In this document: one piece after another, positions 3,537 to 44,605 of the stretch | How the letters are laid out: the number at the start of each line of letters is the position of its first letter | How positions within the stretch are numbered: the first letter of the stretch is position 1 | Virus record (IMG/VR): IMGVR_UViG_3300029117_000001 | Coordinates: 3,829 to 67,828 of that record | DNA length: 64,000 nt | Strand: one strand, 5' to 3' | Source: a virus | Position numbers and translations under genes: made by a program | Notes under the pieces: model-generated | What the model saw: only the letters and a program-made list of their open reading frames with translations | The model's database searches: none | Told to the model about the DNA's origin: nothing

Positions 3537-4298
3537 ATGTCCGTTGGAATCGAGCAGTCTTATCTTACATCTGAGGATAAGGGCGATTCTCCAAAAGATG
3601 AAAGTTTCAAGACACCAACGGCAGATGGAAAATCGCTTCAAGTCGACCTTGAATTTTCTTATAAATTCGATCAGAGCAGAGTAACTGATGTATTTACTCA
3701 GTTCAAAGGTCAATCCGGGGAATCTGTGAAAAATACTTTTATTAAGCCTAAGATGAAAGCATGGACGCAGGAAGTAACTGCGAAGTATCCAGTAACAGAT
3801 GTTTTCGGTGATAAACGCCAGGAACTGAATGAAGCACTTGACGAATATCTTAAGCAGAAGTTTGAGCCATACGGAATTATTATTGATACAGTAAACTTTA
3901 CTTCCATTTCCACTGATGATGAAACACAGGCTGCAATCCAAAAGAAGGTAAATGCACAGCAAGAATTAGAACTTGCTAACATTGAAGCTAAAACAGCCAA
4001 AGTACAAGCTGATAAAGATAAAGAAGTTGCACTGATTGCTGCTGAAAAGGAAAAGGAGAAAGCATCTATCCAAGCGGAACAGGCCAAAATTGATGCAGAA
4101 GGTAAAGCTGAAGCTATTAAGATTAAAGCAGAAGCTGAAGCAGAAGCAAATAGAAAAATCGCAGAATCTCTTACTCCCGAACTGATTGAAAAACAGAAAA
4201 TTGATAAATGGAATGGTGAAGTACCAAAAATTCAAGGAAGTAACACTTCTACTATCGTAGATACAAGAGATATGACAGCTGATGAGAATGCTGAATAA
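3537..4298 (+). CDS. SPFH/band-7 (prohibitin/flotillin/YqiK-like) domain protein; appears to lack the N-terminal membrane anchor
   Basis: The segment TADGKSLQVDLEFSYKFDQSRVTDVF resembles the conserved SPFH core (TKDNLxVxVDAVVxYRI); a long Ala/Glu/Lys-rich coiled coil (AEKEKEKASIQAEQAKIDAEGKAEAIKIKAEAEAEA) is typical of this family. Weak RBS. Confidence 0.55.
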   Translation: MSVGIEQSYLTSEDKGDSPKDESFKTPTADGKSLQVDLEFSYKFDQSRVTDVFTQFKGQSGESVKNTFIKPKMKAWTQEVTAKYPVTDVFGDKRQELNEALDEYLKQKFEPYGIIIDTVNFTSISTDDETQAAIQKKVNAQQELELANIEAKTAKVQADKDKEVALIAAEKEKEKASIQAEQAKIDAEGKAEAIKIKAEAEAEANRKIAESLTPELIEKQKIDKWNGEVPKIQGSNTSTIVDTRDMTADENAE

Positions 4299-4327
4299 TA
4301 AGTAAAACAGTCAAGAGAGCCACACGA

Positions 4328-4373
4328 GAGCCAGACTAAATCCTAAAAAGAAAGGAGGTCTGGCTCTATTTTT
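4328..4373 (+). terminator. terminator-like hairpin immediately upstream of terL, with the terL RBS inside the loop
   Basis: Perfect 9-bp stem GAGCCAGAC/GTCTGGCTC with a 21-nt loop containing AAAGGAGG, followed by TATTTTT and then the terL ATG. Confidence 0.45.
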
Positions 4374-6068
4374 ATGGGAAAAATTACAGAAGGCTCGCTT
4401 GAATGGTATCGGGCAGTGCTGAATCAGATTATCAGTAGTGACATGACAATCTATCAAAATCAAAAAGATTGCCTTGATTTGCTCTTAAATATGAATATTG
4501 ACCTTCCTTTCAACAAGAACCAAGAATCACGGAAAATGGCTATGAAAGTAAGTCAATACTCACATAACATAGCAGAGAAGTGTGCCGCATTAACTGGAAG
4601 TGGTAATTTTGACGATATCTATTGGCAGTATTTGCTACTGGAAGCACCACATTTATTTGAAAGTTACTTGCTTTATATGGAAAAAAATAGACCGGACAGC
4701 AAGAAATTTTATATTCCACGAAAAAAAACACTGCATGTGGTAGCCAAAGACCTACAAGATTTGGAAGAAAGAAAGATAGAGTTTTACGGCTTATCACTTC
4801 CAAGCCGTGTTGGAAAATCCACTATGTGTATTTTCTTTATGTCATGGATAATGGGAAAAAGACCGAATAGTCATAGCGCCATGGGTGGTCATTCTGGAAA
4901 ACTGGCAAAAGGATTTTACGGAGAACTTCTTAACCTCATTAATACACAGGAATACAACTACAGTGAAATTTTTCCGCAATCGAAACTTCAAAAACAGAGT
5001 GCTGATGATTTTGAAATAAACCTGGACAAACCAGACCGATTTGCAACAATGACTTGCCGTGGTATTGAAGGTACTTGGACAGGTGCCGTTGATATTTCTT
5101 CTGATGGGTATTTGTACGTGGATGACCTTGTAAGAGATAGGCAACATTCATTAAGCCCTACCCGATTGGAAAATACATATCAAGAATATCTGAACAAGAT
5201 GGTTGACCGTAAGATTGATGGTGCAAGAGAACTTATGGTTGGAACCAGATGGAATTTATATGACCCTCTTGGAAAAATCGAGAAGCTAAATCGGGATAAT
5301 CCAATGTATCGGTTTAGAAAAATTCCAGCTTTGAACGATGATGGTGAATCCAATTTCGATTATGAGTATGGCGTTGGATTTTCAACAAAATATTATGTTG
5401 ATATGAAAGCTAGGCTAGACGCTAACGAATGGGAAGCTAAATATCAGCAAAAGCCCTTCTTGCGTGAAGGAATTGTGTTTGCAGCTGATGAATTGAGATA
5501 TTATAACGGCGTTCTTCCAGAAGGTGGATTTGTTAAAAATGTTTCTGCTTGCGATGTTGCGTGGGGTGGTGGCGATAGCTTATCAATGCCAGTGGGTGCA
5601 GAATACGAAAATGGAGATGTATATATTTATGATTGGATTTTTAGCACAGCACCAAAAGAAGGAACATTGCCATTAGTTGTTGGAAGAATCATGGGAAATA
5701 ATATTCAATCCATTAATTTTGAAGCAAATAATGGTGGAGATATGTATGCCTATTATGTAAACGAACGCTTGAAAGAACATAAATACGCTTGCAGCACGAC
5801 AAGTACAAAAGCACCTTCAAAACAAGCAAAAAAAGAAAAAATAAATCAATATTCCGGGGATGTTAAGCAAAATTTTATATTTTTGGCTCCGAAATATCAA
5901 GATAAACAGTATCAAAAGGCTATGGATGAATTAACTACATTCGTCTATATTGGTGATAATGAACATGATGACGCTGCCGATGGAGTTACGCAGCTTGCAA
6001 TAACGCTTGCCGGCAAAAGATTTGCAGAAGTAAAAGCAACCAAAAATTTTATGTGGGGAAGGAGATAG
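4374..6068 (+). CDS. terL: terminase large subunit
   Basis: 564 aa; Walker A-like P-loop GLSLPSRVGKST; C-terminal acidic nuclease-type residues (VGDNEHDDAADGV); lies upstream of the portal gene. Confidence 0.85.
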   Translation: MGKITEGSLEWYRAVLNQIISSDMTIYQNQKDCLDLLLNMNIDLPFNKNQESRKMAMKVSQYSHNIAEKCAALTGSGNFDDIYWQYLLLEAPHLFESYLLYMEKNRPDSKKFYIPRKKTLHVVAKDLQDLEERKIEFYGLSLPSRVGKSTMCIFFMSWIMGKRPNSHSAMGGHSGKLAKGFYGELLNLINTQEYNYSEIFPQSKLQKQSADDFEINLDKPDRFATMTCRGIEGTWTGAVDISSDGYLYVDDLVRDRQHSLSPTRLENTYQEYLNKMVDRKIDGARELMVGTRWNLYDPLGKIEKLNRDNPMYRFRKIPALNDDGESNFDYEYGVGFSTKYYVDMKARLDANEWEAKYQQKPFLREGIVFAADELRYYNGVLPEGGFVKNVSACDVAWGGGDSLSMPVGAEYENGDVYIYDWIFSTAPKEGTLPLVVGRIMGNNIQSINFEANNGGDMYAYYVNERLKEHKYACSTTSTKAPSKQAKKEKINQYSGDVKQNFIFLAPKYQDKQYQKAMDELTTFVYIGDNEHDDAADGVTQLAITLAGKRFAEVKATKNFMWGRR

Positions 6069-6071
6069 AAT

Positions 6072-6494
6072 ATGATGACTGCAACTCAATATTTACGCCA
6101 GATTGAAAATTATGATAACAGAATCAAAAACAAGCTTATCGAAGAAGAACAGCTCATTTCTCTTTCCACAAGTGTATCTGCAATTCCTGTTGGAGAAAAG
6201 GTACAAACTTCTGTAAAACGTGATCCGATGGGAGACATGATTGCGAAGATATTTGATCTGCGAGAAGAGATTTCAGAAATGATATCTGAATTTTTACAAA
6301 AAAGACAAGAAATAGTCCGAACTATAGAACAGGTTGAAGATCCATTACTATATGACATATTATTTAAGCACTATGTTGAGTACAAATCTTTGGTTCGCAT
6401 TGCAGATGAGATGGGTTATTCAGAGATTCACATTAAAAAAAAGCATTTAAAAGCCATAGCAGAAATAAAAAAGATAAAAGGTTTCGAAAGATGA
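6072..6494 (+). CDS. ArpU/RinA-like (sigma-70 region 4-like HTH) putative late transcriptional activator
   Basis: 140 aa; the C-terminus YDILFKHYVEYKSLVRIADEMGYSEIHIKKKHLKAIAEI has the sigma region 4 HTH pattern; size matches the ArpU/RinA family. Placement after terL is atypical. Confidence 0.4.
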   Translation: MMTATQYLRQIENYDNRIKNKLIEEEQLISLSTSVSAIPVGEKVQTSVKRDPMGDMIAKIFDLREEISEMISEFLQKRQEIVRTIEQVEDPLLYDILFKHYVEYKSLVRIADEMGYSEIHIKKKHLKAIAEIKKIKGFER

Positions 6495-6517
6495 TACCGA
6501 AGTATACTGAAAAATAC
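6493..6517 (+). promoter_or_regulatory. copy A of a 25-nt recurring motif GATACC-N-GTATACTGAA-N-ATAC
   Basis: GATACCGAAGTATACTGAAAAATAC; near-identical copies at 18247 and 31787, all at gene boundaries and all followed by a hairpin-T structure. Confidence 0.4.
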
Positions 6518-6545
6518 TTTTAATATGTGTAGAATATAAAGTAGA

Positions 6546-6579
6546 GCATTGGATTAAAATATCCAGTGCTTTTTATTTT
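6546..6579 (+). terminator. intrinsic terminator-like hairpin upstream of the portal gene
   Basis: GCATTGGAT/ATCCAGTGC stem (one G-U pair) followed by TTTTTATTTT. Confidence 0.5.
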
Positions 6580-6588
6580 GCAGAAAGG

Positions 6589-8085
6589 ATGGTTCGGCTC
6601 GTGAGAAATACAATGAATTTTGTAGATTTATGCCGAGGTGATTTCGGGCGAAAAGTAGCCTACACAGGCGTTGACCGAATCACTCCACAAAATGTAGTAA
6701 AAGTAGTATCAGATACAATTGGCATACATAATAAAAATCGAACATTGATTGATTACTTGTATCGGTACATGAAAGGCGATCAGCCAATATTGTACCGAAA
6801 TAAAATAGTCCGTCCAGAAGTTAATAACAGAGTGGTTGAAAATCACGCATTTGAAACCGTGAAGTTTAAAGCTGGACAGATTTGCGGGGAACCAATCCAA
6901 TATGTATGTAAAAAGAAAAATGCAGATAAAAAAATAAATGAGCAAGTTGATTTGCTGAATGATTATCTTGATGAAGCCAATGCAGATGCAAGAAACATCC
7001 AGAGAGCAATATACCAAAGTGCAACAGGAACTTCTTATAAGGCTATTCTGAAAGAAGAGGACTGGACAGAAAACGGAGATTTACCGCCGTTTAGAATCTT
7101 TATTCCGTATCCTGGTGATTGTTACATTGTATATTCGCAGAGGAACGGAAAACCAATGCTGTCCGTTCAGATTTTGAAGGATGAAGATGAGCAACAATAC
7201 TACTTATGTTATTCAAAGAACCAGTTTTTCAAAATCACGAATGGAAAAGTAACCGAATATGGAATCAACGGTTTTGGTGGGATTCCTATTGTTGAATGCC
7301 CGAATAATCATGACAGACTTTCGGACGTTGAAATTGCAATCACATTATTTGATGCAATCAACAAATACCAGTCTGATAGATTAAATGGCGTTGAACAGTT
7401 TGTGCAAGCCTTTATGAAGTTCAAGAACTGCGAGGTAGATGAAAACGAGTTTTTGAAAATGGTAAAACTTGGTGCCATCTCTGTAAAAGATACTGGAAAT
7501 GGCTGTCAGTCGGATGTTGAACTGATGACCGCTGAATTGAATCAATCAGAGAGCCAGGTTGCAAAGGATGATATCTACAATAACATGCTGATTGTGGAAG
7601 CAATGCCAAACCGCCAAAGCAATAGCGGAGGGGATACAGGAAATGCTGTATACCTTCGTAATGGATGGGACTTCGCAGAAAGAGATGCAAAATTGGTAGA
7701 AGCATTTACCAAGGAAGCTGAAAAGGAATCTGCTAGAATTATTCTGAATATTATCCGTGGTACATCAAATGATGTTAATATCTCAACCCGAGATTTTGAT
7801 GTAAAGATAACCAGAAACCCAACAGACAATATGCTTGTAAAAGCACAGGCACTTGATTATCTGTTTAAAAATAAAATTCATCCGCTTATTGCACTGATTA
7901 CTTGCGGTTTATTTAGTGATCCGCAGAAAGTCTACGAAATGAGTTTACCGTATCTGGGAACTATTTACCCGGAACTGGCAGACCCGGAAGCGGAAATGCA
8001 GAAAGCACAGCAATTACTTGACGGAAAGTTTCAAAATCCGTCCAAAACAGAACCAATGGCAAATTCTCCATCTAACGAAGAATGA
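6589..8085 (+). CDS. portal protein (SPP1 gp6-like family)
   Basis: 498 aa; gene order terL-portal-scaffold-capsid; the N-terminal region resembles SPP1-type portals. The exact start is uncertain (GTG at 6601 is an alternative). Confidence 0.8.
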   Translation: MVRLVRNTMNFVDLCRGDFGRKVAYTGVDRITPQNVVKVVSDTIGIHNKNRTLIDYLYRYMKGDQPILYRNKIVRPEVNNRVVENHAFETVKFKAGQICGEPIQYVCKKKNADKKINEQVDLLNDYLDEANADARNIQRAIYQSATGTSYKAILKEEDWTENGDLPPFRIFIPYPGDCYIVYSQRNGKPMLSVQILKDEDEQQYYLCYSKNQFFKITNGKVTEYGINGFGGIPIVECPNNHDRLSDVEIAITLFDAINKYQSDRLNGVEQFVQAFMKFKNCEVDENEFLKMVKLGAISVKDTGNGCQSDVELMTAELNQSESQVAKDDIYNNMLIVEAMPNRQSNSGGDTGNAVYLRNGWDFAERDAKLVEAFTKEAEKESARIILNIIRGTSNDVNISTRDFDVKITRNPTDNMLVKAQALDYLFKNKIHPLIALITCGLFSDPQKVYEMSLPYLGTIYPELADPEAEMQKAQQLLDGKFQNPSKTEPMANSPSNEE

Positions 8086-8250
8086 ACCAAATTTCGATTA
8101 TTTAAGGAGTTTTAGAGAAATCTAAGGCTTCTTTTTTAATACCCAAAATCAAATAAATTGCAACAGCCCGTGAGCGTAAATCGGGTACAGACCATGTGCG
8201 GAGCGAACCGTGTTGAAAAAGCGTATTGGACTGGAAGAAAGGAGATTTCA

Positions 8251-10948: not shown

Positions 10949-11260
10949 ATGGGATGTGAACACGAGTGTATCAACGAACACCGCTTGGAAGAATTGGAAA
11001 ATGCCGTCCGTGAGATGAAAGAAAAGCATTCCAAAAGGGATGAAGGCTTTTTTAATCGTATCAATGCGCTAGAACAGAAAATTGCTTTATACAACAACGA
11101 TCTGGGACACATCAAAGATACAGTTGACGAAATGAACGACAATTTAAAAGCACTCATGGAAAAACCAGGAAAATTACAGGACAAAATTATTGCTTATGTC
11201 ATAACTGGCATAATCGGTATTATTTTAGGCTTTGCCCTTAAAGGCATTTTCCCGGTGTAA
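10949..11260 (+). CDS. XhlA-like protein (coiled-coil N-terminus plus C-terminal transmembrane helix)
   Basis: Leucine-zipper-like N-terminus, then AYVITGIIGIILGFALKGIFPV as a single C-terminal TM helix. The architecture matches haemolysin XhlA-type lysis-associated proteins. Confidence 0.45.
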   Translation: MGCEHECINEHRLEELENAVREMKEKHSKRDEGFFNRINALEQKIALYNNDLGHIKDTVDEMNDNLKALMEKPGKLQDKIIAYVITGIIGIILGFALKGIFPV

Positions 11261-11291
11261 TATTGATTCCACTAACAGGGAGGACGGTGGA

Positions 11292-11531
11292 ATGGATAAT
11301 TATAAAGACTTTTCGGAAGATGAAAGAATCTTCTATTTGCGTGAAGCTGGATTTGATTCCAGAGAAAAAGAGTTATTCCGATTGCGTGTTTACGAAGAAA
11401 AAACACTTGCAGAAGCTTCAGAAATCATGGGTTACAGCACAAGAACAGTAGACCGCATAAACAGAAAATTAAAGAAGAAAATTATGAAAGTCGCCCCGAT
11501 GTATTGTCGGGGCTTTTCTTTGTATTCATAA
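11292..11531 (+). CDS. sigma-70 region 4-like HTH protein (candidate late regulator)
   Basis: RBS AGGGAGGACGGTGGA; LAEASEIMGYSTRTVDRINRKLKKKI is a classic sigma region 4 / LuxR-type HTH. Confidence 0.5.
   Translation: MDNYKDFSEDERIFYLREAGFDSREKELFRLRVYEEKTLAEASEIMGYSTRTVDRINRKLKKKIMKVAPMYCRGFSLYS
11492..11522 (+). terminator. rho-independent terminator
   Basis: GCCCCGA-GTATT-TCGGGGC hairpin followed by TTTTCTTT; overlaps the 3' end of the preceding CDS. Confidence 0.6.
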
Positions 11532-11621
11532 AATGTGGCGTATTTATGGCGTTATCATGGCGTGTTAATCAACCTCTTATTATTGTAAAATATAGTTATA
11601 AAAACAAGGGAGGTTTGAGAT

Positions 11622-12457: not shown

Positions 12458-13264
12458 ATGATGAATGGTTCAAATTACAGCCTTAGCGACATTGCAGCTG
12501 CTACAGGCTCTAATAACCGTGCAAATGACATGTGGGGCGGCGATGGTTTTTCCCTTATCTGGCTTGTCCTTATTTTCGCAATCTTCGGCTGGGGCGGTTT
12601 CGGCGGCTTTGGCGGCTGGGGTGGCAATGGTGGAAACGGTACAAATGGTGCAGGTTTCCAAGGATGGGCTACCCGTTCAGATATTAATGAGGAATTCGCC
12701 CTTAATGATATTCAGAATGGTATCAGAGGTATTCAGCAGGGTATCTGTGACAGCACATATTCTCTTAACAATACCATGCAGAGTGGCTTTAATGGTATGA
12801 ATGTTGGAATGCTTCAGGGCTTCAACGGCGTTCAGCAGGCAATCAATGCTGATACTGTAGCCGGTATGCAGAATACCAACGCATTACAGTCTCAGTTAGC
12901 AAACTGTTGCTGTGAAACAAGAGAAGCAATCCAGGGCATCAATTATAACCTTGCTACCAACACTTGTGCTCTCCAGAACACAATGAACAACAATACCAGA
13001 GATCTTCTGGAAAACCAGAACAGCAACACAAGAGCAATCCTTGACTTCTTGACTAACGATAAGATTGCAACATTACAGGCAGAGAACTCTGATCTGAAAC
13101 GTGCTGCATCCCAGGATCGCCAGTCTGCATTGCTTACAACAGAGATGTATGCACAGGCTCAGAGATTAATCAATGCAATCAACCCGGCTCCGATTCCTGC
13201 ATTCCAGGTTCCAGCTCCATATGCATACGCAGGATGTAATACATATGGTAACGGTTGTTGCTAA
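12458..13264 (+). CDS. Gly/Asn/Gln-rich membrane-anchored low-complexity protein with a C-terminal Cys cluster
   Basis: RBS AAGGAGA; one TM helix (LIWLVLIFAIFGW) followed by GGFGGFGGWGGNGGNGTNG (YjcZ-like glycine run); N/Q-rich repeats; CCC and a C-terminal GCC; its own terminator downstream. Confidence 0.5.
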   Translation: MMNGSNYSLSDIAAATGSNNRANDMWGGDGFSLIWLVLIFAIFGWGGFGGFGGWGGNGGNGTNGAGFQGWATRSDINEEFALNDIQNGIRGIQQGICDSTYSLNNTMQSGFNGMNVGMLQGFNGVQQAINADTVAGMQNTNALQSQLANCCCETREAIQGINYNLATNTCALQNTMNNNTRDLLENQNSNTRAILDFLTNDKIATLQAENSDLKRAASQDRQSALLTTEMYAQAQRLINAINPAPIPAFQVPAPYAYAGCNTYGNGCC

Positions 13265-13296
13265 GTAACTCACCCTTAGAGGTTGACTAAATTCTA

Positions 13297-13330
13297 AGAG
13301 GTGGGTTGCGGCTCACCTCTTATTTTGATT
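13297..13330 (+). terminator. rho-independent terminator
   Basis: AGAGGTG-10 nt-CACCTCT hairpin followed by TATTTTGATT. Confidence 0.6.
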
Positions 13331-13343
13331 GAGAGGTAGAAAT

Positions 13344-13769
13344 ATGAGTTGTAAAAATGTTTGTAAGCTCTGCAACCGTCTTGTAATAAGCCAAGCTGTT
13401 GCGTTTACAGGAGGTAATCTTGTAATCACACTCCCAGCAGGCAGTTACAACAATGGAGAGAAATATTGTATTGTTGTTGCACAAAGTATACCAGAAGCCA
13501 CTACAATTACTGCTCCGGTAATGATTCAGATAGGAACAGGAACAACTTTGTATCCGCTAGAAAATCGTTGCTGTGCACAGATTACGGCTTGTGGAATAAG
13601 AACCAGAACGAAGTACGCAACCAGAGTAGCTACAAGTGCAACTGGCGGAGTATTCAAGATGTTAGGAAATCCGGCTTGTAGTCCGAGCAACAATTTGAAA
13701 GCAATTAATGGTACAGCCCCAACGACAGAAGCACCTGTTACGCAGGCTGTTAGAAAGGGGGCACTGTAA
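13344..13769 (+). CDS. Cys-containing Thr/Ala-rich hypothetical protein
   Basis: RBS GAGAGGTAGAA; 11 Cys including CKNVCKLC and CCAQITAC. Confidence 0.45.
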   Translation: MSCKNVCKLCNRLVISQAVAFTGGNLVITLPAGSYNNGEKYCIVVAQSIPEATTITAPVMIQIGTGTTLYPLENRCCAQITACGIRTRTKYATRVATSATGGVFKMLGNPACSPSNNLKAINGTAPTTEAPVTQAVRKGAL

Positions 13770-14401
13770 TGCATAAAGTTGCAATGGAAATGGGAAAATG
13801 GGCTATGGAAAAAGCCAAAACACATGGCTTTGATAATCTCAGTGCTCAAGACTGGGACGATCTGAAAGACTGCATGGAAGTAGTAAAATGTGCGATTTGC
13901 GCTGATAAGGATTACAGAATCGTAGAAGCTATGGACGAATGCGAACAGGAAGAAAAGTATCTTGGACGCATGGGATATGACCGTTACCGCTATTCAAATG
14001 GGCGTTTCGCTCCAAAAGGTAGGGGAACCAGAAAAGGATATAGACCGTATCTGTATATGCAGGATGATGACTGGATGGATGAGTATTTAAACAATCCAGA
14101 GTTTGAGCGCAATATGTACCGCATGGGATATCATCCAGATCGTAGTGATATGGAAAATGATGGTATGAATATGAATTGGAAGAAATCCAGATATGGCGAA
14201 TCCTATGATAGATACGATGAGAATCGTAGGCACTATCATGATTCCAAAGATACGGAATCCAAAAGAAAAATGGATGATTCCATGAAGGAGTATACGTCTG
14301 ACATTATCCGTAATCTCACGGAAATGTGGTCAGATGCAGATGCAACGCTCAGACAGTCAATGAAAACTGACCTGACCAGACTTGTACAGCAGATGAACTA
14401 G
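13769..14401 (+). CDS. Arg/Tyr/Asp/Met-rich charged hypothetical protein
   Basis: Start overlaps the upstream stop; unusual composition (RYRYSNGR, RKGYRPYLYMQDDDWMDEY); followed by a terminator. Confidence 0.45.
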   Translation: MHKVAMEMGKWAMEKAKTHGFDNLSAQDWDDLKDCMEVVKCAICADKDYRIVEAMDECEQEEKYLGRMGYDRYRYSNGRFAPKGRGTRKGYRPYLYMQDDDWMDEYLNNPEFERNMYRMGYHPDRSDMENDGMNMNWKKSRYGESYDRYDENRRHYHDSKDTESKRKMDDSMKEYTSDIIRNLTEMWSDADATLRQSMKTDLTRLVQQMN

Positions 14402-14420
14402 AGCAATAAATGAATTAAGT

Positions 14421-14456
14421 CCTTGTCGCAAATTAATGCGGCAGGGGCTTTTTTCG
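14421..14456 (+). terminator. terminator-like hairpin
   Basis: CCTTGTCGC ... GCGGCAGGGG imperfect stem followed by CTTTTTTCG. Confidence 0.5.
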
Positions 14457-18242: not shown

Positions 18243-18246
18243 AGAA

Positions 18247-18272
18247 GATACCATAATATACTGAATGATACC
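18247..18272 (+). promoter_or_regulatory. copy B of the 25-nt recurring motif
   Basis: GATACCATAATATACTGAATGATACC, followed by the inverted copy GGTATCATT, which forms a hairpin. Confidence 0.4.
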
Positions 18273-18317
18273 AATTAATTATGGTATCATTACAGTGTTA
18301 AATTGTAGCATAAAATG

Positions 18318-18353
18318 CAATGCGTTCACTATGAAGGTGGGCGCATTTTTTAT
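18318..18353 (+). terminator. terminator-like hairpin upstream of gene 18369
   Basis: AATGCG-17 nt-CGCATT followed by TTTTTAT. Confidence 0.35.
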
Positions 18354-20253: not shown

Positions 20254-20577
20254 ATGGATTCTACACCAGCTGAATTAAAACCTTATCTCGAAGCTGAAAA
20301 GATACGTCAAAAGAGAAGAGACGCTGAGCTTTGGCAAGCGGGCATTTATGAAACATCAGCCACATTCACAGCTGTTGCAAATGCTTTAATGGGAAAAAAA
20401 TCCAAGGCAGAGTATTTGAAAAAACCTTTACTGGAATCAGCAGAGGAAGAAAAGCGTAAACAGGAAGGTATACTTTCCGAAGAAGAAAAGAAAAAACAGA
20501 GAAATGCACTTTTGGCAAGCTTGCAACTCATGCAGGCGAACTTTGAGCTTAACCATGAAAAGGGCAGGCAGGATTAA
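20254..20577 (+). CDS. second tail-chaperone-region protein (gpT-like position)
   Basis: Lys/Glu-rich; lies between gpG-like gene and TMP. No obvious slippery-site fusion to the upstream ORF. Confidence 0.4.
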   Translation: MDSTPAELKPYLEAEKIRQKRRDAELWQAGIYETSATFTAVANALMGKKSKAEYLKKPLLESAEEEKRKQEGILSEEEKKKQRNALLASLQLMQANFELNHEKGRQD

Positions 20578-20603
20578 CACTCTTGTCTGCCCTTTATTTT
20601 TTT
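20562..20603 (+). terminator. terminator-like hairpin immediately upstream of the TMP start
   Basis: GGGCAG-19 nt-CTGCCC followed by TTTATTTTTTT; the stop codon of the preceding CDS lies in the loop. Confidence 0.5.
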
Positions 20604-25440: not shown

Positions 25441-25565
25441 ACCGTTAATTTTGGTAAAACCAACAGGCTAGACCGATCATCGAAAAGCGGAAATGCCTTG
25501 CCGCCTGCCTGTTGATTTACATACAGTTCAAGGCACTCTTTTATACGAAAGGCAGGTATCAATCT

Positions 25566-26783
25566 ATGGCAAGAAAACCACTTAGCAAGAAAATCAGATT
25601 TGAAGTATTCAAAAGAGACAAATTCACATGTCAATACTGTGGAAGAATGTCACCAGACGTAATTTTGGAAGTAGACCATATTGAGCCAGTAGCAGAGGGC
25701 GGGGATAATGAGATTACAAATTTAATTACTTCGTGCCGCGACTGCAATAGAGGGAAGGGCAAAACTAGAATTTTAGATTCCAAAGCAATATCGTTTCAAC
25801 AGGAAGCATTAAAAGATCTTGCAGAGAAAAAAGAACAGTTGGAAATGATTGCTGAATGGAAGAAAGAGCTACTTGATTATGATAATATGGCAGTAAACAT
25901 GCTAACGGAATATTTTGAACAATTGACAGGGTGTGATGTAAACGATAACGGACGTAAGGAAATAGGAATATGGTTAAAAAGATTTTCAGCAGATAAAATT
26001 ATGGAAGCAATGGAAAAATCTGTAAAATCATATTGTAAAGAATTTTCGTACGATGAAATTGTAATGGCATTTTCAAAAATACCAGGAGTGTGTATTAATC
26101 ACTCAAAGGGGGATAATAAGTCAAAGTATTATTTTAATTATATAAAAAAAGTTTTAACATCACGAGGAATAGAGTTCAATCCGAAACTTTTAAAATATTA
26201 TGTTGAAACATATTTGATTACAGAAGAAGATTTTGCAGCGGAAAAGAAAAGTAAACGGTATTTAAAAATATTTGTTTCATATCTACACCCCAGATTTGAT
26301 AAAGATAAATTTGCTCAAAACTATATGATGGATAAATGCTTTGTTGGGATCGCTGATATTGACGGAGAAAAGAGCATAGAAAATCTTAAATATGGGCTTG
26401 ATTTAGAAAACAAAGGTTATTTCTTTTCAGATAGATACTCTCCGAAAAATAGAGTTAGTTTGATTCCTTATCTCAATGGCTTTACAGAACTGTTAAGAGA
26501 ATATTATAGAGAATATTATCAAACATATAATGAGCCTCATCCTGTTTTAACTACCGAACAGGGATTAAGGCTTTTAAATCATTATGCGTCAAATAAATAT
26601 TGGGCGAACTGTGTTACAAAAGAAGACTATTGTAATATGTTTTCAATGCTTAAATTGAGTAAAGAATATGGTTGGAAGGAGCAAATGCCAGAAGCTATGT
26701 TTACAAGTGGTGGTACTATTTGTGACGAGAAAATTGCAGAATATGAAAGCGAGGAAAGAAAAAAGCATGATTTTCGACCTTAA
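25566..26783 (+). CDS. HNH endonuclease domain fused to a ~330-aa uncharacterised C-terminal domain
   Basis: N-terminus FEVFKRDKFTCQYCG ... EVDHIEPVAEGGDNEITNLITSCRDCNRGKG is a canonical HNH (H-N-H with a Cys4 zinc site); the remaining ~330 aa have no recognisable motif. Confidence 0.6.
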   Translation: MARKPLSKKIRFEVFKRDKFTCQYCGRMSPDVILEVDHIEPVAEGGDNEITNLITSCRDCNRGKGKTRILDSKAISFQQEALKDLAEKKEQLEMIAEWKKELLDYDNMAVNMLTEYFEQLTGCDVNDNGRKEIGIWLKRFSADKIMEAMEKSVKSYCKEFSYDEIVMAFSKIPGVCINHSKGDNKSKYYFNYIKKVLTSRGIEFNPKLLKYYVETYLITEEDFAAEKKSKRYLKIFVSYLHPRFDKDKFAQNYMMDKCFVGIADIDGEKSIENLKYGLDLENKGYFFSDRYSPKNRVSLIPYLNGFTELLREYYREYYQTYNEPHPVLTTEQGLRLLNHYASNKYWANCVTKEDYCNMFSMLKLSKEYGWKEQMPEAMFTSGGTICDEKIAEYESEERKKHDFRP

Positions 26784-27929: not shown

Positions 27930-27992
27930 TGCTTTCGGAATGCGTCCCAAAGTGGTACAATGTGGGTATCAAATATTGGGAGGTACGTATGT

Positions 27993-28919
27993 ATGAAGAA
28001 AGTAAAAAGAGTTATTGCTGCTGCAACCGTGATGGCGAGTTTGGTGACTGTGACACCTGTCATGGCGTTTAAGTGGGAAATCGGACAAAAGGAAGAAACT
28101 AAAGAAACAACACAAATAGAACCAGCAACAGAAGAAGAAACAGAAGCGGTATTTTCTGTATGCAAGGATTTGTGGGAAGACTTGGAATTGAAAACTTATA
28201 AAATGAGCCATTCAGAGATATTTGGAGATTCTGATGATTCTGCGGATACAGAAATCCACTACGAAGATGTAATCAAAAAAATATATTCAGAAAAAATTAA
28301 TGATTATCCAGACTTTTCAATGGGAGACAAGGTAAAAATAAATGGATATGTGTTACAGACCATAGAGCTTCCGACAGAACAAGAATGGCAAGCAAATAGT
28401 GTTAATAAGGCTGGCGCATATCGTGTTGAAATTTCAATTGATAATTCTATAACATATACAGGATATGATGAATTTGCAATGTTCGTAAGAAGCAATAACT
28501 CAAATGTATTAAAACTACAGGTGGGAGATTACGTTACTGTTGAGGGAATATTTTTAAAACCAGATTCAATTTCTGCGCAAGATTATATATATGATTGCAC
28601 TATCTCAAAATGCGAAGATACACCACAAGTACCGCTTGGAAAGAAAAATGCGCTGAAAGAAGCTATAGATTATTTAGATATAAATTCGTTTTCTTATAAT
28701 GGAATAATTCAGCAACTGAAATTTTCACAATATACAGATGAAGAAGCTAAATATGCAGCAGACTTTTGTGGAGCAAGTTGGAATAGACAAGCTGAAAAAT
28801 CTGCTAAAAGTTATTTGGATATTACAAGTTTTTCAAGAGATGGGCTGATTCAGCAATTGGAATTTGATGGATTTACTTCTGAACAGGCAGAGTATGGGGT
28901 CACTCAAGTAGGGTATTAA
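27993..28919 (+). CDS. secreted Ltp-repeat protein (superinfection-exclusion lipoprotein Ltp family of S. thermophilus phage TP-J34)
   Basis: Signal peptide MKKVKRVIAAATVMASLVTVTPVMA; two C-terminal repeats (AIDYLDINSFSYNGIIQQLKFSQYTDEEAKYAADF / SYLDITSFSRDGLIQQLEFDGFTSEQAEYGV) match the Ltp repeat signature. No lipobox Cys is present. Confidence 0.6.
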   Translation: MKKVKRVIAAATVMASLVTVTPVMAFKWEIGQKEETKETTQIEPATEEETEAVFSVCKDLWEDLELKTYKMSHSEIFGDSDDSADTEIHYEDVIKKIYSEKINDYPDFSMGDKVKINGYVLQTIELPTEQEWQANSVNKAGAYRVEISIDNSITYTGYDEFAMFVRSNNSNVLKLQVGDYVTVEGIFLKPDSISAQDYIYDCTISKCEDTPQVPLGKKNALKEAIDYLDINSFSYNGIIQQLKFSQYTDEEAKYAADFCGASWNRQAEKSAKSYLDITSFSRDGLIQQLEFDGFTSEQAEYGVTQVGY

Positions 28920-28926
28920 AATGATT

Positions 28927-28958
28927 AGGCTAGGGATTTCTCCCTAGCCTTTATTTTA
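28927..28958. terminator. bidirectional terminator between convergent genes
   Basis: Perfect AGGCTAGGGA/TCCCTAGCCT hairpin followed by TTATTTTAG. Confidence 0.55.
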
Positions 28959-29852: not shown

Positions 29853-29934
29853 ATGCGTTTTCCTCCCTAAATCAGTATGATATACATATTTTACCACTCC
29901 AAAATGAATAGTGGAATAGGAAATTTGAAAAAAA

Positions 29935-31480: not shown

Positions 31481-31777
31481 ATGGCAAATAGAATCCAGTT
31501 CAATGACTTTCAGAAAAAGAGTGTGTACGCCAAGTGCAACGGAAAATGTGCGATATGCGGTAAGCCTGTCAAATTCAAGAAAATGACAATCGACCACATT
31601 ATGCCGTTGTCTCGTGGCGGCACAAATGATATTAAGAATCTGCAACTGGCGTGTAAGCGTTGCAACAGCATGAAGAGTAACATGACAATGGATGATATGA
31701 TGGGGCAGATTTCCGAGATTTTGAAGTATAACCGCAAACAGAAGTTGATTAGAGTGTTGGGAGGAATTATAGAATGA
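31481..31777 (+). CDS. HNH endonuclease
   Basis: CNGKCAICGKP ... DHIMPLSRGGTNDIKNLQLACKRCNSMK: HNH with a Cys4 site. Confidence 0.65.
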   Translation: MANRIQFNDFQKKSVYAKCNGKCAICGKPVKFKKMTIDHIMPLSRGGTNDIKNLQLACKRCNSMKSNMTMDDMMGQISEILKYNRKQKLIRVLGGIIE

Positions 31778-31786
31778 TACCATAGT

Positions 31787-31811
31787 ATACTGAATGATAC
31801 TTTCAACGTAT
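31787..31811 (+). promoter_or_regulatory. copy C of the 25-nt recurring motif, followed by an extended -10
   Basis: GATACCATAGTATACTGAATGATAC, then TGtTATAAT at about 31817-31825, then a hairpin plus T-run before the Rha gene. Confidence 0.4.
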
Positions 31812-31913
31812 GTTATAATATAAAATCATAATAAGCAAATTTTAAAGCGTTTACCTTTTGGGGTAGGCGCTTTTTTGTTGCCAAAAAATAAATCATAAAG
31901 GAGATATGAATTT

Positions 31914-35900: not shown

Positions 35901-37578
35901 CAAACTTACCAATGGCGGCAAGGCACAGGGGATTTACTTGGATGAAAATGGAAATGTCTATGTAAATGGTGAATACGTGCAAGCCAAAGGAATTAGGGTT
36001 GTTGATGGAAATGGAAAAACCACTTTTTCCATTGACAAAACCACTGGTGCAGTAACAATAGCAGCTTCACAGTTTACATTAGGAGATAAAAGCGTTACTG
36101 ATATAGCACAGGAAGAAGTCGTAAAACAAGTCCAAGATATTACATCGGACAATATTATTAAAGGCTATTATCTAACAGAACAAAATGTTAAAGATTATTG
36201 GTCTACACAGAGTGCATATACATATGAGTATGGAGTTCAGGATGTAGATGGCGGTAAAAATGCAATCAAAATAAACGGAACTGGAGCACAATTTGGAACG
36301 AAAAATTATAAGCCAATAAAAGTTACTGGAAATTATACTTTTTCGTTTTGGATAAAAACTAGTGTTGCAACAAAAGTATATGTGTATCTTGGAAGTAAAA
36401 CAATATTAAATGCTAAAACTACAACTGAATGGAAAAGACTGCAAGTAACAACAACTTTATCTAGCTTACCAAATGATAGTTTAAACAGTTTGAGAATCTT
36501 GACATCATCAGTTGGGTCTAGCGTAAAATTTGATACCTATATTTACATGCCAAAGCTTGAATATGCTTACACAAATGAACAAGTGTTCAATATGCTTACA
36601 AACAACGGTGCAATAAAGGGCATGTACATGGAAAATGGAGAATTGTATTTTTCATTCACCTATGCACATGGAGGTACATTGAAACTTGGCGGTTCAAATA
36701 ACGGGAACGGATTACTTTCCATTCTGAATGCAAGTGGCACACAGGTTGGATATATTGACAATACAGGTGTTCATTTTAACCAAGGTGAATTTTCTGGAAA
36801 TTTGAAGTCTAATACTGGTGAAATTGGAAGCTGGATAATTGATAAGACCAACGGTATTCTAAAATCGAAAGATGGAGGAATTATACTGGATGCAAATAAC
36901 AGTAAAATTTATGCCGTTGTACCGACTGGACATACTGGGACTGAGATATCAAAAGAAAAAATTGTTTCTGGAGATGCGAACTTTTCCAGTGCAACCATTG
37001 GGGAAGGAATCATAGGAGAAAATGTTGGTTCTTGGTTTAAAACAGGAAATTCGTTTAATGGCGATAATAGTGCAGAACTAAATATCGAACAATATTTTCA
37101 CGTTACAAGTAGATCATTTGAATTACCGGCATTAGACAAAGTTTCATCTGGCGGTCACTTGGTATTTAAATCAGACGGATTGACAGTGGCTTGTACACTT
37201 TCCTCTTCTAAAAGATACAAAGTTCTTGGAAATAAGATAACAGAGAATGATATAGAGAACCTTTACAATATTAATCCTGTTTGGGCGAAATATAAGAATG
37301 AGTTAATAGCAAAAGATGATGAACGGTACGACACATATATGCCAATGTTCATTGCAGAAGATGTAGAAAAATGGTTTCCAATAGCAACAGACCACAGAAA
37401 CGGGATGGCAGAAGACTGGAACCAAAAAATTATGATTCCATCCATGTTCGCCATGATAAAATTTAATCATGAGAAGATAAAGGAGCTTAAATCTGAAAAT
37501 GAAGAATTGAAATCTGAATTAAAAAGCATTAAAGAAGAGCTTGAGGAAATCAAAAAATTGTTAAACAAATCAATATAA
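32953..37578 (+). CDS. tail fibre / host-specificity protein (1541 aa)
   Basis: The N-terminal ~400 aa resemble siphovirus tail-associated proteins; long beta-rich middle with repeated segments (KLTxGGxxQGIYxxxxGxVYxN occurs twice); C-terminal coiled coil IKELKSENEELKSELKSIKEELEEIKKLL; terminator follows. Confidence 0.7.
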   Translation: MRNLSTEFKEQQNSGNRNYLKYADFTFTDGSTLSITDKDLWSNGFKFEDAVSQNGSFDIGAAIINKLTLQINNFSGKYTDYIWDGARVVCHIGLELSTGIEKIRICTMTVTDAPYQSTAIISLTCEDSMRLFDRDYSESKLTYPATRLQIIQDACEVCGVTLQSTRFDNDDFVIQNRPDDSSITFRQVIAWVAQMGCQWAKCDEYGRLCFGWYEREVPDNFYDLVETPWKDIEGKDILDTTGAQIITVMQKGITAIDTNGFTPWLYDAEITGVKVTEYVENSSKNEAKTYQSGKSGYVIEISDNKLIQEGSGEKICQIIADRCVGLKFRPFTTGALTNIAWEAGDTIAISDRNGKQYKSFLTSVTLNPGAFEQLECSAKSVSRNKQKQYTLSQQVQAESKKNLKDERTAREKAIEELSQRLSESSGTYTTVETQPDGSNIYYLHNKPQLSDSDIIWKMTAEAWAVSTDGGQHWNGGMTVDGDVIARILTATGVNADWINTGTIKAIDKDGNTTFLVDVTTGRVVINADSVQIKGKDVNAIAKEKAETEVNNFISNTYTTDINNLQSQIDGQIETFFYDYEPTLQNIPASGWTTNEERKKHEGDLFYWKSKGYAYRFMQDGATWKWQLVQDTDITLALAAAEKAQDTADHKRRVFVVQPEPPYDIGDLWTQGSNGDLMRCKVARASGSYSEDDWEKASKYTDDSTFNAFLDGVFKDTINSLKTQIDGKIETWYQPNDPSIKWKKTEEYPWCDIDGNKILDESGNEIVLVWESEKVEHEGDLWHNTSDNTQWIFKSGIWQPQSIPNELLDKIDGKSSVYMVQPKPPYYKGDMWVTTNNEGKASLKTSTVNRVSGAFDASDWIDFKYADKDDIKNAIDNYDTSLGQDEVFNKLTKGGTEQGIYIEDGKVYINAKYILAGLLAGERINGRGLKVIDDNKDVTLEIDSKGNVILAPKTFSLQGKTVKEIADSSASTAVSGQTQADIFNKLTNGGKAQGIYLDENGNVYVNGEYVQAKGIRVVDGNGKTTFSIDKTTGAVTIAASQFTLGDKSVTDIAQEEVVKQVQDITSDNIIKGYYLTEQNVKDYWSTQSAYTYEYGVQDVDGGKNAIKINGTGAQFGTKNYKPIKVTGNYTFSFWIKTSVATKVYVYLGSKTILNAKTTTEWKRLQVTTTLSSLPNDSLNSLRILTSSVGSSVKFDTYIYMPKLEYAYTNEQVFNMLTNNGAIKGMYMENGELYFSFTYAHGGTLKLGGSNNGNGLLSILNASGTQVGYIDNTGVHFNQGEFSGNLKSNTGEIGSWIIDKTNGILKSKDGGIILDANNSKIYAVVPTGHTGTEISKEKIVSGDANFSSATIGEGIIGENVGSWFKTGNSFNGDNSAELNIEQYFHVTSRSFELPALDKVSSGGHLVFKSDGLTVACTLSSSKRYKVLGNKITENDIENLYNINPVWAKYKNELIAKDDERYDTYMPMFIAEDVEKWFPIATDHRNGMAEDWNQKIMIPSMFAMIKFNHEKIKELKSENEELKSELKSIKEELEEIKKLLNKSI

Positions 37579-37606
37579 AGAGGGTGAGAAATCATCCTCT
37601 TTTTTA
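37579..37606 (+). terminator. rho-independent terminator
   Basis: AGAGG-12 nt-CCTCT followed by TTTTTT. Confidence 0.55.
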
Positions 37607-38598: not shown

Positions 38599-38798
38599 TT
38601 ATGTGTTAGAGAGCTGCGGAAATTATAGCCTCCTTATCACGGTACAGCTATACTTGTGGTAAGGAGGTGATGTCATTATGACAGAGAATTTAATCATGGT
38701 AGGTATATTGTATAAAAAGTTTATGTTAAAGAGCATCCCATTTGGGGTGCTTTTTATTATGCACTTTTTTAACCTCAACAATGAAAGGAGAACATACA

Positions 38799-39604: not shown

Positions 39605-39609
39605 TAATA

Positions 39610-39631
39610 CTCCCGGGGCTTTCCCCGGGAG
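39610..39631. terminator. bidirectional terminator hairpin between convergent genes
   Basis: CTCCCGGGG-cttt-CCCCGGGAG perfect stem. Confidence 0.5.
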
Positions 39632-40333
39632 TTACTTAAATGTCGTATATTCTTCAAATTCGTTTCTTATTTTTGCAAAGTCTTTTCTTCTGATAGGCAC
39701 AGTATTTCCAGAAAACATAAGGAACGAAGTGTTTATTTCTTTTACCTCGTCCATGTTTATTATGTAGCTCTGGTGACACCTCAAGAATCTGGAATCCAGT
39801 AATTCTTCAATATCGGATAGTTTACATCGTTCCGTATAAACTATACCGCAAGTGCAGTGGATAATGATGTATTTGTTTCGGCTCTCAATATATTCGATAT
39901 TTTGAAACTCCACCCGATGAATAAAGTCTTTTCCTTTTATCATAAGAGTGCTTTTGCTGATATGTTCCAGAGCATGATTGAAAGCACTATACATTCTGCC
40001 GTTTTCAGAACCTTTTATGATATAGTGTACCGGGAGTATATCAAGAGCTTCAAAAACATACTCTTTGTGGGCTGTCCAGAAAATAATATTTCCATTATAG
40101 CCATTTAATCTCAATTCCTTTGCGACTTCAATTCCATTTTCTTCTTTCAAAACGATATCCAAAACCACAATATCATACCACTCGCCATCTGCCACATCAT
40201 CAATAAGCGGCTGCCCTTTATCATACGGAGTAATCAATGCTTTTATATCACCATTTCGTTTGAGAAAATTATTAATCCGATGCATAAATATATCAATCTG
40301 GATTTCGCTATCATCACATATTGCAATTCTCAT
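39632..40333 (-). CDS. LytTR-family response regulator (receiver plus LytTR DNA-binding domain), orphan
   Basis: Receiver motifs MRIAICDDS and IVVLDIVL (acidic pocket) with K at the FWTAHKEY position; C-terminal LytTR domain (FIHRVEFQNIEYIESRNKYIIIHC ... LRCHQSYIINMDEV). No adjacent histidine kinase. Confidence 0.8.
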   Translation of the reverse strand: MRIAICDDSEIQIDIFMHRINNFLKRNGDIKALITPYDKGQPLIDDVADGEWYDIVVLDIVLKEENGIEVAKELRLNGYNGNIIFWTAHKEYVFEALDILPVHYIIKGSENGRMYSAFNHALEHISKSTLMIKGKDFIHRVEFQNIEYIESRNKYIIIHCTCGIVYTERCKLSDIEELLDSRFLRCHQSYIINMDEVKEINTSFLMFSGNTVPIRRKDFAKIRNEFEEYTTFK

Positions 40334-40820: not shown

Positions 40821-40971
40821 TTTAATAAGCAGGAACAAATGTTTGGAATATTGGGAGGGATTTACGTGGATTACAAGAAAGAAATTATTGAGATTATTGA
40901 AAAAATGCACAACATAACTTTTATTGCGATGATTCATGCGTTTGCGAAAAAATTATATCAAAAGGAAAAAG

Positions 40972-41006
40972 GGCAGGAGAGTTAATCTCCTGCCTCATTT
41001 TATTTT
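40972..41006. terminator. terminator
   Basis: GGCAGGAG-agttaat-CTCCTGCC followed by TCATTTTATTTT. Confidence 0.5.
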
Positions 41007-44604: not shown

Positions 44605-44605
44605 A

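Follow-up and report, generated by a model that had tools for sequence, protein, structure and literature searches.

Terminator-like hairpins directly upstream of the terminase, portal and tape-measure genes of an abundant gut phage and their possible role in read-through-dependent late expression

Why should hairpins with the appearance of intrinsic transcription terminators stand directly in front of key virion genes? The question is raised by a 64,000-nucleotide stretch of viral DNA (positions 3,829 to 67,828 of IMG/VR record IMGVR_UViG_3300029117_000001; hereafter the window, numbered from its first nucleotide), which is part of a ∼80-kb phage that is very common in the human gut. An earlier note on the window, made from the sequence alone, described hairpins followed by T-runs upstream of the genes for the large terminase (terL), the portal protein and the tape-measure protein (TMP). 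All three structures are present where they were reported, and their folding energies (−23.4, −15.5, and −23.1 kcal/mol, respectively) are far below the limit of about −8 kcal/mol that had been set for a stable hairpin; none of 200 shuffled sequences folded as well as any of them (z −6.0 to −6.9). No phage RNA polymerase is seen among the annotated open reading frames (ORFs) of the window, and terminators of the host type are therefore the relevant ones. Overall, the sequence evidence leans toward genuine Rho-independent terminators in a conserved gating arrangement, in which late expression would need read-through, most likely of the kind provided by lambda Q and here involving a regulator of the LtrB family.

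The terL gene (4374..6068, + strand; phrog_38, 4e-51) starts at an ATG (4374-4376) that is backed in alignments by the conserved N-terminus MGK..EWY. Its leader hairpin (4327..4367, +) contains the 9-bp stem described earlier, GAGCCAGAC (4328-4336) paired with GTCTGGCTC (4358-4366), which RNAfold widens to 11 bp (4327-4337 with 4357-4367), followed by a 3-nt bulge, a 4-bp UCCU/AGGA helix and an 8-nt loop (−23.4 kcal/mol, z = −6.0). The Shine-Dalgarno (SD) sequence of terL, AAAGGAGG (4351-4358), does fall between the 9-bp arms, as the earlier note had it, but is not free in the loop: AGGAGG is paired with UCCU and the top of the main stem in both the minimum free energy and the ensemble fold, with an unpaired probability of ≤0.022 for 4353-4358. 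In the relative L166 (loci compared with the window carry L numbers), which is without the UCCU, most of the SD is in the loop. The ATTTTT tail (4368..4373, +) touches the start codon, TATTTTT occupying 4367-4373, so that there are zero nucleotides between T-run and ATG where one had been counted, and the SD-AUG spacing is 15 nt. The same arrangement of hairpin, T-run and start codon recurs in L084, L160, L094, L119, L111, and others. The U-rich tails read AUUUUU at terL, UUUUUAUUUU at the portal gene and AUUUUUUU at TMP, and the A that opens the first of these is sub-optimal for a terminator. Rfam 15 gave no match at 4250-4450 or near any of the hairpins, and none at the corresponding leaders of eight loci drawn from the two classes described below. 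A sigma-70-like ATGACA-16-AATAAT at 4272-4299, upstream of the hairpin, was rejected as a promoter, its sequence differing between relatives and promoter-like matches occurring at chance level (58, with 62 expected).

Close relatives say little about selection acting at the RNA level, since in 78 of them both stem arms and an upstream duplicate of the 5′ arm are invariant and only the loop, the SD and the spacer (2-6 nt) vary. Among syntenic relatives the gene 5′ of terL changes and the element from CAGTCAAGAGAGCC to the ATG is constant, and the hairpin is likewise unchanged in a mosaic relative with an overall terL identity of only 43%. In this mosaic, L001 (MT838118.1), positions 1-2350 correspond to window positions 4306-6600, and the N-terminal ∼95 residues of terL, the hairpin on the 5′ side and the regulator and portal genes on the 3′ side are near-identical, which points to a recombination breakpoint inside terL. 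More distant loci are more informative. A strong hairpin with a T-run is found at the terL start in 53 of 74 loci from genomes of different bacterial species (terL 29-59% identical), as compared with 48 of 279 other ORF starts (17%) in the same loci. Two classes can be distinguished. Class A leaders, that of the window among them, carry the SD in the 3′ arm or the hairpin top, and the U-run doubles as the spacer to the AUG; the SD-AUG spacing is 14-20 nt in the AGAGCCAGA subfamily and 8-11 nt in other class A lineages. Class B leaders consist of a two-tier hairpin, a U-run, GGAGG and then the ATG within ∼20 nt. Analysis of 17 SD-embedded (class A) leaders with MAFFT and RNAalifold gave no consensus structure because variable loops spoiled the alignment, and positional statistics and the alignable class B were used instead. 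In an alignment of 18 class B sequences, 97.8% of the cells are paired and 10 of 16 pairs show double changes, a result that none of 500 shuffles reached and that collapses in controls with slid positions. The closest cultured relatives, Clostridium phage Maintenon and Eggerthella phage EL753P1, are without a terL hairpin.

The strand on which these structures are best formed bears on whether the element acts as RNA or as DNA. An inverted repeat functioning as DNA could be a terminase recognition site of the pac or cos type, a site for some other protein, or a recombination hotspot at the module boundary 5′ of terL. Its position directly 5′ of terL, where a hypervariable cargo slot ends, would suit such a role, as would the occurrence of AGAGCC in three copies (two direct, one inverted), the nearly perfect palindrome of the window hairpin (−22.3 kcal/mol for the sense strand, −20.3 for its complement) and the way in which the hairpin travels with the conserved terL N-terminus in MT838118. 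Across 54 distinct terL-proximal hairpins, however, the sense strand folds better than the complement in 51 (mean −22.9 vs. −15.9 kcal/mol), a contrast that is somewhat inflated because the hairpins were chosen on the sense strand; G·U pairs make up 164 of 882 pairs on the sense strand and 21 of 712 on the complement, and the class B alignment contains conserved U·G and G·U columns. T-runs are found on the 3′ side only, with a mean of 6.4 T in the 10 nt downstream as compared with 3.6 A in the 10 nt upstream. The spacer between the direct copies varies from 2 to 6 nt, which argues against a protein site of fixed geometry, and contigs of relatives show no clustering of their ends at the site, nor do these ends coincide with the terL hairpin, leaving a physical genome end there unsupported. 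Covariation, G·U pairs and the sense-strand bias together indicate that the terL element works as sense-strand RNA and not as a DNA palindrome, and we regard a DNA-level function as very improbable.

Acting as RNA, the terL hairpin could instead be a translational operator or riboregulator that hides the SD, and in some lineages the start codon too, until a factor, a ribosome or pairing with a duplicate of the 5′ arm opens it, the T-run being incidental. Sequestration of the ribosome-binding site had been raised by the earlier note, and in the window the SD is indeed more completely paired than was thought at that time. The SD is in the 3′ arm in ∼20 lineages, and SD and ATG both lie inside a −35 kcal/mol hairpin in L083, L088, and L091. 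The unusual spacing in the AGAGCCAGA subfamily also fits, as does the duplication of the 5′ arm, AGAGAGCCA in the window (4314..4322, +; separated from the arm by a variable spacer, here CACG). An exact duplication is found in 8 of 20 SD-embedded lineages, where 0.46 would be expected, and in 2 of 29 others, and is thus specific to the SD-embedded class; equivalents in L083, L084, L090, L096, L152, L154, and L160 covary with the stem and leave the spacer free. The idea does not extend to the larger class B (∼29 lineages), in which the SD lies outside the hairpin, past the U-run, so that hairpin plus U-run is the clade-wide feature. In the window, moreover, the alternative hairpin formed with the distal copy of the arm (−12.4 kcal/mol) keeps AGGA paired with UCCU and so leaves the SD sequestered; L166 has lost the UCCU, and no Rfam family or ligand-type structure was found. 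A translational switch as the primary function is accordingly improbable, and for the clade as a whole a purely translational or DNA-level role of the terL hairpin is unlikely. RNAfold of 4299-4420 also pairs CAGUCAAGAGAGCC with terL codons 7-11 (GGCUCGCUUGAAUGG), that is, 4308-4323 with 4394-4408, enclosing hairpin and AUG (−39.1 kcal/mol); as a general trait this long-range pairing was rejected, since it is missing in L084, L096, and L154.

The position of the terL hairpin is itself informative. At the terL loci the distance from hairpin to ATG is 0-25 nt and that from the upstream stop codon to the hairpin 3-30 nt, and in many loci 3-15 nt, which leaves no space for a promoter between hairpin and start codon, and transcription can reach terL only by passing through the hairpin. 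The same lack of space is seen at the portal and TMP genes of the window, whose expression thus likewise depends on read-through. In the window the terL hairpin ends a run of at least 27 kb that is free of strong sense-strand terminators. The slot directly upstream is filled by unrelated cargo genes depending on the lineage, among them SPFH/Band_7, LemA (with an unknown protein), RtcB RNA ligase, another RNA ligase and a serine recombinase (window 3537-4298; L162 6141-7438; L164 3061-4263; L160 1890-2477; L127 2973-3722), and a restriction-like protein and unknowns occur there across other loci. Structured RNAs at such sites have been noted before: a large computational survey of IMG/VR found 14 candidates that precede large terminase genes of the psiM2_ORF9 type by ≤25 bp (PMC10690425). 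These are listed there as candidates only, with no anatomy, relation to terminator or SD, or mechanism. They probably represent the same phenomenon as the terL leader described here, the two having been compared by description and by the psiM2_ORF9 domain. The terL protein of the window matches termin_lrg_T7 and psiM2_ORF9 below threshold (psiM2_ORF9, TIGR01630, 23.8 bits vs. a cut-off of 41.65) and that of the relative L127 has a C-terminal psiM2_ORF9 domain at 50.4 bits against the same cut-off. The existence of structured RNAs 5′ of such terminases is thus already on record, and their anatomy and role are not.

Between terL and the portal gene lies an ORF for a 140-aa regulator of the DUF1492/LtrB type with a sigma-region-4-like C-terminal helix-turn-helix (6072..6494, +). 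It scores 23.7 bits with DUF1492 (PF07374; Pfam cut-off 21.5), its homologues carry precomputed PF07374 and PF04545 annotations, and phrog_36 is its best match, phrog_79 (‘Q-like’) being weaker at 1.2e-5. In an AF2 model (pLDDT 85.7) the predicted C-terminal domain superposes on sigma region 4; a sequence search of the PDB gave nothing meaningful. In phages of Gram-positive bacteria, DUF1492 corresponds to LtrB, a family of late regulators that has been defined by experiment (PMC3753634). Beginning at the stop codon of this gene is a putative late promoter block (block 1; 6490..6535, +) with three ATAC direct repeats ∼10 nt apart, a −35-like CTGAAA and a −10 TAGAAT, followed by the pre-portal hairpin (6543-6572; −15.5 kcal/mol, 11-12 bp, z = −6.8) and TTTTTATTTT, hairpin and T-run together occupying 6543..6579 (+). 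The hairpin is kept, with wobble and compensatory changes, in L166, L162, L164, and L084/L167, and in L084 the pre-portal region likewise has a −10-like element and then the hairpin. A repeat and −10 block directly 5′ of it suggests that the portal hairpin belongs to a 5′ leader, as a promoter-proximal terminator, and does not simply separate two genes of one operon.

Two further blocks of this kind are predicted. The window contains exactly three copies of the 15-mer TATACTGAAWRATAC (6503, 18257, and 31786), each just 5′ of a hairpin with a T-run (6543, 18319, and 31844), and five matches at ≤2 mismatches, a number reached by none of 100 shuffles. Block 2 (18244..18290, +) has GATACC repeats, CTGAAT and an extended −10 TGgTATCAT, and is followed by a hairpin with T-run (18319..18347, +), the SD GAGGTG and an ATG at 18369; the same block is found in L166, where the equivalent hairpin has a different stem sequence. 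Block 3 (31773..31819, +) has GATACC/GATACT repeats, CTGAAT and a consensus extended −10 TGtTATAAT (31811-31819), with its hairpin and T-run (31844..31873, +) 5′ of a Rha-like gene at 31914. The three direct repeats of a block overlap the −35 and the spacer, and in L164, whose regulator is 51% identical, all three switch together from ATAC to ATAT. The hairpins of blocks 1-3 would begin 0-25 nt past the predicted start sites, with at least eight more sense-strand hairpin and T-run sites downstream. The converse order, with promoters 3′ of the hairpins and the −10 within the T-run, was rejected because in blocks 2 and 3 transcription would then start within the SD or past it. A second promoter type is suggested by three TGGCGT direct repeats at 11-nt spacing, then TAAAAT and the SD and ATG of ORF 11622 (11536..11563, +), a pattern contained in none of 100 shuffles and with a similar set in L166. 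It lies directly 3′ of a terminator that overlaps the 3′ end of a second sigma-region-4 (sigma70_r4) regulator gene (ORF 11232-11531; terminator 11486..11518, +, kept in L162, L164, and L166), that is, in the classical order of terminator then promoter, and looks like the target promoter of that second regulator itself. With at least four predicted repeat-bearing promoter blocks and two regulator genes of the sigma-region-4 type, the region does not appear to be the single co-transcribed late operon that the earlier note assumed, and hairpins within it are less anomalous than was claimed.

The third hairpin, a 15-bp structure (20559-20595; −23.1 kcal/mol, z = −6.9) followed by A and seven T (20559..20603, +), precedes the SD and ATG (20627) of TMP, and the stop codon TAA (20575-20577) of the preceding ORF (20254-20577) does lie in its 7-nt loop, as reported. 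Position and stop-in-hairpin arrangement are the same in L168, L169, L170, and L167, with stems that are either compensated (G-C to A-U) or wholly different in sequence. The terL, portal and TMP hairpins are a subset of ∼16 compact sense-strand hairpin and T-run sites located between 4.3 and 41 kb, and a relative with a terL only 34% identical keeps those before terL, portal and TMP together with the equivalents of two others, at 13295 and 14417. A built-in scan found terminator-like sites at about twice expectation in the interval 1-40 kb (27 vs. 13.4 ± 4.1 in 1-20 kb and 26 vs. 12.3 ± 3.9 in 20-40 kb) and not in 40-60 kb. A looser hairpin and T-run scan (ΔG ≤ −13) returned 18 sense-strand sites, all within 4.3-41 kb and none in the other 27 kb; ∼15 of 17 sense sites are intergenic or overlap stop codons.

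The order seen before the portal gene is also found behind LtrB-like genes elsewhere. Streptococcus phage Javan630 and two ‘Heliusvirales’ gut phages, all of them unrelated records, each have such a gene followed by repeats, TATAAT, ∼24 nt, a hairpin, UUUCUAUGCC, an SD and the next gene. An exact 19-mer of this hairpin and tail is present in 82 viral contigs, with an LtrB-like ORF just upstream in 68 of the 70 that have enough upstream sequence and a perfect TATAAT 20-90 nt on the 5′ side in 67 of 75. The conserved leader (AAGCCTTGTGGG..CCTGCAGGGCTTTTTCTATGCC; L171 2977-3004, L172 3013-3042, L173 2985-3014, and the 82 IMG/VR contigs, L174-L253) lies between the DUF1492/LtrB gene and an HNH-endonuclease-like gene (L172 and L173; annotated so in L171). 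This leader is shared by Streptococcus phages and gut phages of the Ruminococcus type, in samples of very diverse origin, and has no Rfam family. The pre-portal hairpin and tail of the window look like a diverged member of this group, and the order promoter, terminator, gene appears to be a family trait of LtrB systems. A sub-threshold match of an LtrB leader to the streptococcal small RNA SSRC10 of Rfam (26 bits as against 56) was considered as experimental proof of a short terminated transcript and rejected, SSRC10 itself mapping between the core genes SPyM3_0439 and SPyM3_0440.

These arrangements can be accommodated in a scheme in which the hairpins would act as Rho-independent terminators on sense-strand RNA made by the host polymerase. 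The terL hairpin would be the first terminator met after a long terminator-free early and cargo region, a few nucleotides past a hypervariable cargo gene, and would insulate or attenuate transcription entering terL and the LtrB-type gene behind it, with pairing of the SD in the terL stem keeping translation of terminase low. The LtrB-type regulator would act at the three copies of the promoter block carrying ATAC/GATACC direct repeats, with a terminator (the portal hairpin in the case of block 1) 0-25 nt past each predicted start site. Late transcription would therefore first have to pass a terminator close to its promoter and afterwards several within the late region, the TMP hairpin among them. 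Most likely, polymerase leaving the block promoters would be made terminator-resistant by the logic of lambda Q, LtrB being the candidate factor.

Three considerations favour regulated read-through. An activator ought to be superfluous at a promoter with a consensus extended −10; one or two strong terminators precede the genes for scaffold and capsid; and published reporter data for Ltr fit antitermination at least as well as activation if the −10 is 5′ of the terminator, a layout that was assumed for the Streptococcus suis locus in making this comparison. In that work a terminator between ltr and the first late gene was inferred, which blocks read-through from an upstream promoter unless Ltr is present (PMC3753634), and terminators in phage 5′ untranslated regions (UTRs) with two modes of read-through have been described (PMC10914365). 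The weak matches of the window regulator to Q families also speak for this reading.

Several points weigh against this scheme. LtrB and RinA have been published as promoter activators, not antiterminators (PMC3753634, PMC3152322), and mapping for RinA placed a primary 5′ end 23 nt before terS (PMC3152322). The regulator of the window is below the Phage_antitermQ cut-off (PF06530, 19.8 bits vs. 26), and among the 50 fold-search matches listed for it there is no solved Q structure, the consistent matches being to sigma region 4. A −10 hexamer resembling the Q-type pause element is absent in L173-type leaders, and block 1 has no room for one. The terL hairpin has no repeat-promoter block upstream, so that read-through at this site needs a separate explanation (leakage or another factor), and its AUUUUU tail may make only a moderately efficient terminator. 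The looser scan returned 31 antisense hits, as compared with the 18 on the sense strand, the antisense strand being T-rich; raw counts from that scan were consequently discarded as evidence, which lies instead in compactness (sites with a ΔG per nt of ≤∼−0.42 are enriched on the sense strand, ∼16 vs. 7), intergenic position, positional conservation and covariation. Finally, termination itself and its efficiency, start sites, promoter activity, read-through and any antitermination are predicted from sequence, which narrows the three functions that the earlier note had offered without preference (antitermination, RNA processing or stability, and translational control) and does not separate regulated antitermination from constitutive partial termination.

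Constitutive partial termination, serving dosage and insulation, is a serious rival, which we consider possible rather than probable. Real terminators that leak constitutively, with no dedicated antitermination, would let a fixed fraction of polymerases pass, keeping terminase, portal, TMP and the distal tail genes low and insulating the late genes from cargo and early transcription; the hairpins might also give transcripts stable 3′ ends, or stable 5′ ends on those from late promoters, and LtrB would be a plain activator of initiation, strong enough to absorb the loss. The products of terL, portal and TMP are low-copy or catalytic components of the virion, each with a hairpin directly before its gene, and the imperfect terL tail, the published role of Ltr proteins as activators (PMC3753634, PMC3152322) and the documented partial read-through at phage 5′-UTR terminators (PMC10914365) are all in keeping with leakage. 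So is the hairpin and T-run right after the portal gene (8104..8133, +), which is present in L166 and dispensable in L162 and L164. Leakage accounts less well for scaffold and capsid, the most abundant proteins, whose genes lie behind one or two strong terminators, in a series (6543, 8104, 11486, then 13295 and 14417) that would compound losses. Nor should the consensus extended −10 of block 3 need an activator, which would leave the terminator as the only obvious control point, and a generic leaky terminator would need far less sequence conservation than the LtrB-leader hairpin and its tail show.

Comparison with known systems places regulated read-through closest to the Q/PR′/tR′ module of lambdoid phages, in which, as is predicted here, the regulator gene is directly 5′ of the late promoter, DNA repeats overlap that promoter and a terminator lies within the opening tens of nucleotides of the transcript, with additional ones following in the late region. 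A possible parallel is offered by −10-like hexamers 7-8 nt past the −10, seen here in block 3 (CATAAT), block 2 (TTAAAT) and the Streptococcus-type leaders (TAGAAT). The lambdoid systems differ in that the regulator here is of the DUF1492/sigma-region-4 type and below threshold for Q families, that there are at least three late promoters instead of one, that the hosts are Firmicutes, and that terL is upstream of the regulator; loading, pausing and antitermination are here putative. The Ltr superfamily (RinA, ArpU, LtrA, LtrB = DUF1492, and LtrC; Ferrer et al., 2011, PMC3152322; Quiles-Puchalt et al., 2013, PMC3753634) shares with the window the DUF1492 family, repeats right after the regulator gene and a terminator between that gene and the first late gene, which in the Ltr systems is expressed only with Ltr. 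In the published cases the regulator precedes terS, whereas here it is between terL and portal and has three target blocks. The order of repeats and −10, terminator, and SD also departs from a simple terminator-then-promoter model. In Tn916, terminator T1 and the cis-acting antiterminator canT provide a parallel, since read-through from upstream genes is there stopped by a terminator bordering a functional module, whose expression then depends on processive antitermination (PMC11658703). Tn916 is, however, an integrative and conjugative element, not a phage, and canT is most likely an RNA element, whereas the late leaders here, with ∼0-25 nt before the hairpin, are too short for an RNA of the put or canT type. 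Terminators in the 5′ UTRs of Pseudomonas phages, detected by ONT-cappable-seq, share the order promoter, terminator, gene and yield either short terminated or long read-through transcripts (PMC10914365), although hosts, phages and polymerases are different and no link to LtrB-type regulators or to terL was described there.

A broader proposal, which is speculative and in our estimation doubtful as a whole, is that the DUF1492/LtrB ‘late activators’ of Firmicutes phages may work like lambda Q, engaging repeats in a constitutive consensus promoter and making polymerase resistant to a conserved terminator 20-50 nt into the transcript and to all later ones, and that, separately, the leader of the terL clade (hairpin, U-run, start codon, with an SD-embedded and arm-duplicated variant) may be a distinct, undescribed class of cis-regulatory RNA that gates terminase and regulator.

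The late switch in phages of Gram-positive bacteria is understood only in terms of an Ltr protein that activates one promoter. The layout of regulator gene, repeats, consensus −10, terminator and first late gene is kept in very abundant gut phages as well as in Streptococcus and Ruminococcus phages, and is explained more naturally by antitermination than by plain activation. The geometry of RinA has been called puzzling in published work, with a binding site >155 bp from the mapped start and a terminator in between. Stop signals of this kind are known and it is their arrangement directly before key virion genes that is new, with an implication for the way in which LtrB-family regulators work that, if true, is moderately surprising. 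The terminator abutting terL, which is found in dozens of Clostridia phage lineages beside a variable cargo slot, offers a landmark for annotating the early/late boundary and is likely to be an insulator that lets phages carry expressed cargo genes beside toxic packaging genes. As a set, these terL-proximal terminators could also provide compact natural parts for engineering phages of gut Firmicutes. Should the terminators be simply leaky, they would amount to ordinary operon punctuation, which is still useful for annotation.

As to the phage itself, related terL genes are encoded by >555 IMG/VR contigs, the best 80 of which are 98-100% identical, many of them on contigs of 77-86 kb. The genes of the window are nearly all on the + strand, and the G+C content is ∼37%. 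No integrase is seen in the 64 kb and there is no close prophage among 185,579 species genomes, in which the top terL identity is 59%, so that the lysogeny presumed in the earlier note is putative; the nearest relatives there (29-59% identical) are mostly in metagenome-assembled genomes of Lachnospiraceae and Oscillospiraceae.

The remaining hairpin and T-run sites of the region are mainly intergenic. One follows ORF 12458-13264 (13295..13322, +) and is kept in L162, L164, L166, and L167 with a compensatory change, and another follows ORF 13769-14401 (14417..14450, +; −21.4 kcal/mol). The latter is matched in position in L162, L164, L166, and L167, and comparison of L162 with the window reveals two double compensatory changes at this site. 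Farther downstream, a bidirectional terminator is predicted between the convergent genes 27960-28919 (+) and 28956-29948 (−) (28927..28950, both strands; −17.5 kcal/mol on the + strand and −18.4 on the −). A hairpin with T-run lies directly after the gene for a 1541-aa tail protein (37578..37601, +) and another 5′ of the SD and ATG (∼38798) of the endolysin gene (38718..38765, +). A second bidirectional terminator is found after the endolysin gene and the convergent ORF 39632-40333 (−) (39609..39632, both strands). The last strong site of the region, also bidirectional, is at 40971..40995, from where to 64 kb there is no strong sense-strand site.

In L162, an HNH endonuclease gene is inserted between terL and the regulator gene. 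The window contains a single tRNA gene (448-516, +), assigned by ARAGORN as tRNA-Cys with the unusual anticodon ACA and also recognized as tRNA by Rfam. An int-alpA RNA motif (Rfam, 45.4 bits, above the gathering threshold) is located at 25461-25533 (+), between the stop codon of the tape-measure gene (25303) and an HNH-endonuclease-like ORF (25512-26783). A reverse-transcriptase ORF in the early region (55649-56695, +; phrog_1423, 1e-81) may belong to a diversity-generating retroelement or to a defence or retron-like module. A RAGATH-18 RNA (Rfam, 57.7 bits, above the gathering threshold; 45807-45880, +) begins 47 nt 3′ of a TnpB/IS605-type transposase-like ORF (44558-45760; phrog_506, 1e-109) and probably represents the RNA end of an element of the IS200/605 type that has inserted into the phage.

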